NCBI RefSeq assembly: GCF_988243305.1
Contig: NZ_OZ547136.1
Reading direction: 5' to 3' (one strand)
DNA length: 64,000 nt
Part shown: piece by piece, positions 42,301 to 45,300 of the stretch
How positions within the stretch are numbered: the stretch's first letter is position 1
Layout of the letters: each line of letters starts with the position of its first letter
Position numbers: made by a program

Positions 42301-45300
42301 GGTGATAACCAATTGCTGATCGGCAATGAGACATTTACGGATAAGATTCTGTCCGCATCTGAACCTGGTGACTTGCTATAATTATAAGCAATATTTAAAT
42401 AAATCCCATGTACACTCGTATTATAGCCGACCTGATACAAGGTATCTTTATTATTCGTATTCCAGTAAGTTTGTTGACTTGCCGCCAAATACATAGAGCC
42501 ATATTCGCCCAATGGTTGCGATATATTTGCCTGAAACTTTCCTCTTTTGCTATAACGTAAATTATAAAAATCATTCCAGTTATAAACATAGTCTTTTTCA
42601 TTAAGGGTATCTGGATCGATAACCGTACCCGACATTTGTTTGTATGTGGTATCACTCAACGAATAAAATCCCTCCGTCGAATAGCGATAACCAATAATCT
42701 GAAAAGCCGTACCTGTCTGCACTAACGATTTTGAATATAGGAAACGGTACGATTGCCCTTGATGTTTACTGCCATCGGCAAGCGTGCTATTGGCTTGCGT
42801 TAAATCAAATGACGTCGCACCAAACATACCAAGGTTGAACCCAAGCCCGAGTGCTATTGCCCGATAATTATTTGAGTATTGCATCCCTCCGTAGGCGGTA
42901 ATATCCCAGGGTAACCCCCAAATCAAATCTCCTTGAAAGACATTCGGACTGTTTTGATTATAGCTATTGCTACGATATTTACCGGCAGTTGCCGAATATT
43001 TAATATGCCCTTCGCGTTGAAGAATGGGAACAGCGGCGTAAGGAATAGTATAGATAGTTTCGGAATTATCAGACTCTTTGATCGTAACTTCCAAATCCCC
43101 AGCGGAAGACGTAGGGTTCAGATCGTTGATTTCAAAGGGTCCCGGTGGAGTATATGTCTGATAAATAACATAGCCATTTTGTTTGATCGTTACCTGAGCA
43201 TTGCTTTTAGCAATACCGCGCACAGTGGGGGCAAAACCACTTTGGCTATCGGGTAGCATGTTTTCATCGGATTCAAGTTTAGCACCACGAATACTCACAC
43301 TGTCGAAAACATCCGATGAAGACCAGGTACTGATGAATCCCCTAATGATTTTGGTAAAAATCATTAAGTTAAGGTAGATACACATCTTGTCATATGATCA
43401 AATGGTTTCGCCAAAAATCAATAATCAGACAACAAGATGTGCGAACTCGATATTTTACACGACTCTCTTTACCAATTCTGCCCCGAATTACACTTAAAAC
43501 GACTCAACAGCTTAACGTTGGCTTGCCACGCATTACTTGACTGTAAAACTCTCACTCTTACCGAACTTGGCCGTAACCTGCCAACCAAAGCGAGAACAAA
43601 ACATAACATCAAACGAATCGACCGATTGTTAGGTAATCGTCACCTCCACAAAGAGCGACTCGCTGTATACCGTTGGCATGCTAGCTTTATCTGTTCGGGC
43701 AATACGATGCCCATTGTACTTGTTGACTGGTCTGATATTCGTGAGCAAAAACGACTTATGGTATTGCGAGCTTCAGTCGCACTACACGGTCGTTCTGTTA
43801 CTCTTTATGAGAAAGCGTTCCCGCTTTCAGAGCAATGTTCAAAGAAAGCTCATGACCAATTTCTAGCCGACCTTGCGAGCATTCTACCGAGTAACACCAC
43901 ACCGCTCATTGTCAGTGATGCTGGCTTTAAAGTGCCATGGTATAAATCCGTTGAGAAGCTGGGTTGGTACTGGTTAAGTCGAGTAAGAGGAAAAGTACAA
44001 TATGCAGACCTAGGAGCGGAAAACTGGAAACCTATCAGCAACTTACATGATATGTCATCTAGTCACTCAAAGACTTTAGGCTATAAGAGGCTGACTAAAA
44101 GCAATCCAATCTCATGCCAAATTCTATTGTATAAATCTCGCTCTAAAGGCCGAAAAAATCAGCGCTCGACACGGACTCATTGTCACCACCCGTCACCTAA
44201 AATCTACTCAGCGTCGGCAAAGGAGCCATGGGTTCTAGCAACTAACTTACCTGTTGAAATTCGAACACCCAAACAACTTGTTAATATCTATTCGAAGCGA
44301 ATGCAGATTGAAGAAACCTTCCGAGACTTGAAAAGTCCTGCCTACGGACTAGGCCTACGCCATAGCCGAACGAGCAGCTCAGAGCGTTTTGATATCATGC
44401 TGCTAATCGCCCTGATGCTTCAACTAACATGTTGGCTTGCGGGCGTTCATGCTCAGAAACAAGGTTGGGACAAGCACTTCCAGGCTAACACAGTGAACCG
44501 CCCCGGGTTTCCTGGAGAGTGTTTTATCTGTGAACTCAGGCTGCCAGATCATCGTTTCCGATGGAAGCATAATAAGCTTTTTCTGCTTCTGCCGGAGGAG
44601 TATGGCCCAGCCTTTCCAGCAATCGTCGATTGTTATACCAGTCCACCCACGTGAGTGTGGCCAGTTCCACTTCTGCACGGTTTTTCCAGCTCTTACGGTG
44701 TATTACCTCCGCTTTGTAAAGACCATTGATGCTCTCCGCCATCGCGTTGTCATACGAGTCGCCTGTACTTCCTGTTGATGCCAGTAATCCGGCTTCCTTA
44801 AGCCGCTGTGTGTAGGCCAGCGATACATACTGAGAACCTTTATCACTGTGATGGACCGTGCCGGACGGTCGACGGGCCCATAACGCCTGCTCCAGTGCAT
44901 CCAGCACGAATGTCGTTTCCATGGACGATGAGACCCGCCACCCCACGATGTATCCGGCAAACACATCAATGATGAACGCCACATAGACGAAGCCCCGCCA
45001 TGTGCTGACGTAAGTAAAATCAGCCACCCACAGCTGGTCAGGTCGTTCTGCCACGAACTGACGGTTTACGCGGTCGCCTGCGGCAACGGCTTTCCGGCTG
45101 ATGGTCGTACGGACCTTTTTACCCCGGAGAACACCGGCAAGTCCCATAACCGCCATGAGACGTGCCACAGTGCATCTGGCCACTCTGATACCTTCCCGTA
45201 ACAACTGACGCCAGACTTTACGCACACCGTATACCTTGTGATTTTCATCGTATACGCGCTGTATCTCTTTCTTCAGCCAGTCATCGCGCTGCGCACGGGC

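Follow-up and report, generated by a model that had tools for sequence, protein, structure and literature searches.

Does an IS10 element that has interrupted a fimbrial usher gene serve as a promoter for the genes lying beyond it? This question is raised by a locus on contig NZ_OZ547136.1 of the NCBI RefSeq assembly GCF_988243305.1, of which a stretch of 64,000 nucleotides, hereafter called the window, was analysed. Here, between glpD and glgP, the operon for Auf chaperone-usher fimbriae has a complete copy of the insertion sequence (IS) IS10 in its usher gene, aufC. A preliminary description of the window had proposed that the regulatory module at the outside end of IS10 is retained and that its outward promoter, pOUT, could transcribe the distal half of the operon. 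In our opinion, it is very probable that a standard IS10 inserted into aufC and was later split by an IS629-like element, that its module is unchanged, and that read-through from it is weak and inconsequential. Outward transcription from IS10 is a long-published property of this element, and no new mechanism is involved.

The IS10 copy and its borders

Anatomy, sequence identity, orientation and the lack of intrinsic terminators were established on the window itself. IS10 occupies positions 43330-45971 on the plus strand, with the outside end at 43330 and the inside end at 45971, both read directly, and measures 1329 bp after subtraction of a nested IS and its 3-bp duplication. The parts of this composite are as follows.

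43321..43329 (left copy) and 45972..45980 (right copy), no strand: 9-bp target-site duplication of IS10, GACCAGGTA, read directly
43410..44493, plus strand: RNA-IN start and transposase codons 1-352, from the open reading frame (ORF), the Pfam domain DDE_Tnp_1 and the codon count
44494..45803, minus strand: IS3-family element of 1310 bp, presumably IS629/IS1203-like, from the Pfam domains HTH_Tnp_1, rve and related ones
45807..45971, plus strand: distal part of IS10, comprising the last transposase codons (353-402, to 45958) and the inside end, from the sequence and comparison with IS10-Right (IS10R)

The sequence CTGATGAATCCCCTAATGATTTT, with which IS10 starts, begins at exactly 43330; the window contains it a single time, and no copy would be expected by chance. 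Both canonical ends, outside CTGATGAATCCCC... and inside ...GGGGATCTCTCAG, are present and identical to those of IS10R of plasmid R100. When the uninterrupted locus of E. coli 042 was aligned, its matches to the two flanks overlapped by 9 bp at the point of insertion, which confirms the duplication. In databases, the element matches copies named 'IS4-like element ISVsa5 family transposase' with up to 100% identity (at least 99% in most records).

The reference copies IS10-Left and IS10-Right were those located within Tn10 of plasmid R100. IS10-Right of Tn10 (IS4 family; GenBank J01829; ISVsa5 in the labels of NCBI PGAP) is likewise 1329 bp long, has the same ends, obeys the same 9-bp duplication rule and shows the same RNA-OUT/RNA-IN/Dam architecture. 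The transposases are also the same once the nested IS is left out: the rejoined protein of the window copy (402 amino acids, DDE type, with a match to Pfam DDE_Tnp_1) does not differ from that of IS10R at any amino acid. Unlike IS10-Right, the window copy carries three single-nucleotide polymorphisms (SNPs), and its transposase gene is cut after codon 352 by the IS629-like element and is presumably inactive in situ. The placing of an IS10 outside end at 43330-43450 in the preliminary description is borne out by the start of CTGATGAATCCCCTAATGATTTT, by a match to the Rfam family RF00240 and by the small number of differences from IS10R.

The element that splits IS10 bears the marks of the IS3 family, namely a length of ~1.3 kb, orfA/orfB, a -1 frameshift signal, an rve core and a 3-bp duplication. 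This duplication, CAG, flanks it at 44491-93 and 45804-06, and an ALIL frameshift pseudoknot was detected by the Rfam scan at 45352-45468 with 120 bits. Copies with 100% identity occur in many E. coli genomes, where they are recorded as 'IS3 family transposase' only. From its ends and length, we take the element to be IS629/IS1203-like; a literature search with its terminal repeat returned only papers on IS6110, which has the same repeat, and the name IS629 is a presumptive one. The second IS at 44494-45803 was not mentioned in the preliminary description.

As to the order of events, IS10 would have entered aufC first, and the IS629-like element would have entered the IS10 transposase gene later. 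The nested insertion follows IS10 nt 1164 and so falls inside the segment of nt 1000-1230 (window 44330-44493 / 45807-45971), within which two more outward-reading promoters of the element, pIII and OUTIIp, have been placed near the inside end (PMC11481808). Because of this position, pIII and OUTIIp may be separated from the inside end; in the window, they would read antisense into the N-terminal fragment of aufC.

The control module at the outside end

Transposition of IS10 is controlled from a short region at its outside end, the components of which were found in the window at the following positions.

43375..43444, minus strand: RNA-OUT antisense RNA by Rfam RF00240; the published 69-nt RNA (IS10 nt 115 to 47) corresponds to 43376-43444
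43396..43399, no strand: Dam site GATC, IS10 nt 67-70, within CATATGATCA (43391-43400), overlapping the -10 region of pIN
43445..43494, minus strand: the 50 bp preceding the start of RNA-OUT, location of pOUT (IS10 nt 116-165), identical to IS10R and IS10L of Tn10

The match to RF00240 extends over the full length of the model (1-70/70) and scores 99.5 bits (gathering threshold 41; E = 1e-20). RNA-OUT is predicted to fold into a long stem-loop whose loop domain is open, with an energy of -23.9 kcal/mol, the same as for the IS10R version, and no U-tract lies behind the stem in this fold. RNA-OUT is known to be 69 nt long, to have its 3' end at IS10 nt 47 and to overlap RNA-IN with its first 35 nt, and the Dam site is known to overlap the -10 region of pIN (PMC5006887). 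When published coordinates are mapped onto the window, the start of RNA-IN falls at 43410 (IS10 nt 81) and the ATG of the transposase at 43437. The 5' 35 nt of RNA-OUT are complementary to the translation-initiation region of RNA-IN by overlap of opposite strands at nt 81-115. The GATC noticed earlier within CATATGATCA is indeed there, and a second GATC is situated near the inside end of IS10, at 45962-45965.

The boundaries of 43330-43450 first given to the module hold for RNA-OUT and the Dam site. They leave pOUT mostly outside, as RNA-OUT starts at 43444 and a -10-like hexamer for pOUT, TAAAAT, is found at 43452-43457 (assigned by eye, with no published mapping). RNA-OUT would be made from pOUT in vivo, and the sequence upstream of its start is identical to IS10R.

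The module in the window belongs to the RNA-IN/RNA-OUT/Dam system of IS10 and presumably works like it. In this system, pIN, with the Dam GATC in its -10 region, would drive RNA-IN and the start of the transposase gene, and RNA-OUT, 69 nt long, would be produced from convergent pOUT, pair through its first 35 nt with the ribosome-binding region of RNA-IN and block translation of the transposase.

Are the substitutions in this copy compatible with a working module? The differences from IS10-Right of Tn10/R100 amount to three in 1329 bp, namely nt 47 G>A, nt 83 G>C and nt 203 C>A. The first two (window 43376 and 43412) are IS10-Left alleles in an otherwise IS10-Right-like copy, and the third is synonymous and shared with the chromosomal copy of E. 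coli strain KL53. From nt 84 to nt 202, including the pOUT stretch, the copy is identical to IS10-Right, and nt 1-1165 match one plasmid copy at 100%. The change at nt 47 is in the unpaired 3' tip of RNA-OUT, and that at nt 83 is in the loop of RNA-OUT and at position +3 of RNA-IN. Pairing of RNA-IN with RNA-OUT begins between this loop and the 5' region of RNA-IN (PMC4737173, citing Kittle 1989).

Two substitutions inside a 120-bp module, one of them in the region where pairing starts, could be read as signs of decay, with pIN, RNA-OUT or both inactivated and the module left as a non-functional remnant. Such decay is very unlikely, for the same alleles are natural in IS10-Left of Tn10 and recur in strain 142, in the chromosome of which nt 1-231 of the outside end are found with both of them. 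In addition, RNA-IN and RNA-OUT are still fully complementary because both are copied from the same DNA, the energy of the fold has not changed, and the Rfam consensus has the same base at the position corresponding to nt 83. We therefore rejected the decayed module as largely refuted and keep to a presumably functional one, in which the nt 83 change may weaken cross-talk with IS10 copies that have G83, no other consequence being plausible. The single E. coli chromosomal copy compared for this allele, that of KL53, has G83.

Possible outward transcription into the distal auf genes

The operon into which IS10 has inserted is arranged in the window as follows.

38494-39624, minus strand: aufG, adhesin, intact, downstream of the insertion
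39638-40417, minus strand: aufF, chaperone, intact, downstream of the insertion
40383-40907, minus strand: aufE, intact, downstream of the insertion
40915-41448, minus strand: aufD, intact, downstream of the insertion
41478..43329, minus strand: distal fragment of aufC, with the remainder of the Usher pore domain and PapC_C (Pfam)
45972..46720, minus strand: proximal fragment of aufC, with PapC_N and the start of the Usher domain (Pfam); its ORF enters the inside end of IS10 and stops at 45968
46762-47514, minus strand: aufB, chaperone, intact, upstream of the insertion
47635-48339, minus strand: aufA, major subunit, intact, upstream of the insertion

pOUT is directed outward through the outside end on the minus strand, in the sense of the distal aufC fragment and aufD-G. 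The strand geometry therefore agrees with the earlier proposal that pOUT fires outward, toward lower coordinates, in sense with the usher fragment and the minor subunit genes. The accompanying phrase that the module faces a truncated usher is correct in that it faces the distal part of aufC; the gene is, however, split rather than truncated, and its N-terminal part (45972-46720) lies beyond the IS. Divergence in the -10/-35 region of pOUT, which the preliminary description had named as evidence that would refute its proposal, was not found, the 50 bp upstream of RNA-OUT being identical to IS10R.

No intrinsic terminator-like site was found on the minus strand from 43444 to 41478 by a terminator scan combined with folding. 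Since RNA-OUT has no intrinsic terminator, some pOUT transcripts should run over the outside end into distal aufC, as has been published for IS10. Part of the transcription from pOUT continues into neighbouring genes, at ~10% of lacUV5 (PMC9330008); a strong terminator is lacking behind pOUT of IS10, and read-through RNAs of several different lengths arise from it (PMC11774165); and the outward promoters of IS10 have been invoked for the activation of cat and acrEF (PMC4574204). All three papers credit Simons 1983 for pOUT transcripts entering neighbouring genes. For the activation of genes next to IS10/Tn10, the sources cited in PMC9330008, PMC4574204 and PMC11481808 are Ciampi 1982, Simons 1983 and, on acrEF, Olliver 2005; Ciampi 1982 is listed among the references of PMC11481808.

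The arrangement in the window is like that of such activation cases in that the outside end faces sense-oriented genes, the pOUT stretch is intact and no terminator precedes the end of the IS. It is unlike them in that the next complete gene is ~1.9 kb away and the essential usher is broken. In the published cases, a gene or a ribosome-binding site is said to lie near the IS end, and expression is said to have been selected for. At the junction in the window, no translatable gene that would escape polarity lies near the end of IS10: aufD, the first complete gene downstream, starts ~1.9 kb from pOUT, and no Shine-Dalgarno sequence was found before the in-frame starts at 43385, 43364 and 43259. 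Outward transcripts of Tn10 are reportedly sensitive to Rho unless translation resumes close by, a result ascribed to Ciampi 1982 and to Wang & Roth 1988.

Rho-dependent polarity is likely here because the in-frame starts at the junction have no Shine-Dalgarno sequence, and a cut-off by Rho is expected since the 1.9 kb before aufD are not convincingly translatable. Promoter activity, the extent of read-through and its consequences are inferred: the read-through would probably be weak and progressively cut short by Rho. Transcription of the distal operon from pOUT is thus plausible at a low level.

The start at 43385 deserves separate consideration, as this ATG is located within IS10 and opens an uninterrupted reading frame (minus strand, 41478-43385) that matches the frame of aufC. 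This ORF could encode a chimeric protein of 635 amino acids, that is, an N-terminally truncated usher with a 19-residue leader from IS10. Production of this protein is highly improbable: the ATG has no Shine-Dalgarno sequence and is sequestered in the 3' arm of the highly stable stem of RNA-OUT, and an in-frame fusion is a 1-in-3 coincidence. Even if made, the chimera could not reach the outer membrane because it has neither a signal peptide nor the PapC_N domain. A functional fusion usher was rejected on account of the missing Shine-Dalgarno sequence, the missing signal peptide and the start codon inside the RNA-OUT stem, and the 635-amino-acid ORF is probably an annotation trap, not a gene.

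Base composition bears on the strength of expression as well. The auf island (38494-48339) has 41% GC against 51% in the whole window, which is consistent with a horizontal origin, and silencing by H-NS is likely. Could pOUT nevertheless be a mobile promoter that substantially expresses aufC', aufD, aufE, aufF and aufG and has uncoupled them from the native auf promoter? The right orientation, the intact upstream stretch, the lack of an intrinsic terminator in between and the published activation of neighbours by IS10 read-through all speak in favour of it. We consider it unlikely in view of the distance to aufD, the absence of an in-frame start preceded by a Shine-Dalgarno sequence in the intervening RNA, an AT-richness typical of H-NS-silenced islands and the fact that published read-through reaches merely a tenth or so of lacUV5 right at the IS end.

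Another source of distal auf RNA might lie upstream, in the native aufA promoter and/or in a promoter of the IS629-like element that reads via the 5' part of IS10. This is compatible with orfA and orfB of the nested element, which are on the minus strand and co-directional with auf and pOUT, and with the absence of a convincing minus-strand terminator between 44536 and 43330. Such transcripts would have 2.6 kb of IS DNA in their path, the last 1.2 kb of it (IS10 antisense) untranslated, and transposase promoters of the IS3 family are generally weak, so that it is quite improbable that most of the distal RNA comes from there.

No observation is at odds with the anatomy. The reading given at the outset, an unchanged module with weak read-through, also has some observations weighing against it. 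The SNP at nt 47 would sit at the putative -35 of pIN as we placed it. The consensus promoter scan of the window recovered neither pIN nor pOUT; its threshold of at least 9 of 12 consensus matches is too strict and overlooks these known promoters, for which reason the silence of the scan was not used as evidence. Finally, a strong C-rich, G-poor tract of the rut type was not seen in the C/G composition profile of the minus-strand RNA, in which there is only a mild excess of C over G at 43284-43000.

The interrupted Auf operon

The gene names and composition of the auf operon, aufABCDEFG, follow PMC12928451 and PMC5956150, the former of which also places the operon in the glpD..glgP region. The operon in the window is at the same site and encodes the same Pfam domains as that for Auf fimbriae of E. 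coli (aufABCDEFG, CFT073 c4207-c4214), and its gene order is kept: major subunit, chaperone, usher, two minor subunits, second chaperone and adhesin. It differs from Auf of E. coli in the interruption of aufC by an IS10::IS629 composite.

When the two aufC fragments are rejoined, an intact usher of 863 amino acids is obtained, with seven amino-acid differences from that of E. coli 042. The locus is collinear with that of 042 between glpD and glgP, with flanks 99.2% identical, and identity of the flanks to phylogroup D-like strains such as 042 is 99.2-99.5%. The organism belongs to E. coli or Shigella. As all other auf genes and the rejoined usher are intact, the IS10 insertion is the only lesion of the operon.

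The junction between IS10 and aufC is spanned by none of the complete RefSeq E. coli genomes, and no GTDB species representative matched it in an exact scan. An exact protein look-up of the 250-amino-acid AufC'-IS10 read-through product was also without a match. The insertion into aufC is probably recent.

In E. coli 042, aufB is annotated as frameshifted (L001 10311-11062); aufB of the window (46762-47514) is intact. It seems that the auf operon is inactivated at different genes in different strains. The spacer separating glpD from aufG contains, at 38073-38115 on the minus strand, a match to the Rfam small RNA ES036 (CssrF) that scores 43.6 bits (gathering threshold 37.6); a short remnant of a pseudogene is annotated close by in strain 042.

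Significance for Auf fimbriae and IS10

The phenotype of Auf fimbriae would not be affected by the read-through because the usher is destroyed, and without a functional usher these fimbriae cannot be assembled at any level of RNA; pOUT read-through is probably without functional consequence. It may be imagined that low constitutive pOUT activity, possibly together with read-through from the IS629-like element, frees aufDEFG from the control of the auf promoter, and that AufF and AufG, made without their own usher, are assembled or displayed via another chaperone-usher system, but we regard this as hardly credible.

Beyond annotation, the significance of the finding is small, as it concerns a textbook element at a strain-specific location. 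Auf fimbriae in this strain have been knocked out by a single, probably recent insertion of IS10, which was then itself disabled by another IS. Since this copy has no full-length transposase, its module would now act only as a source of trans-acting RNA-OUT against other IS10 copies that share the nt 83 allele. The dead copy retains the complete RNA-OUT gene and could in this way damp the transposition of other copies of IS10.

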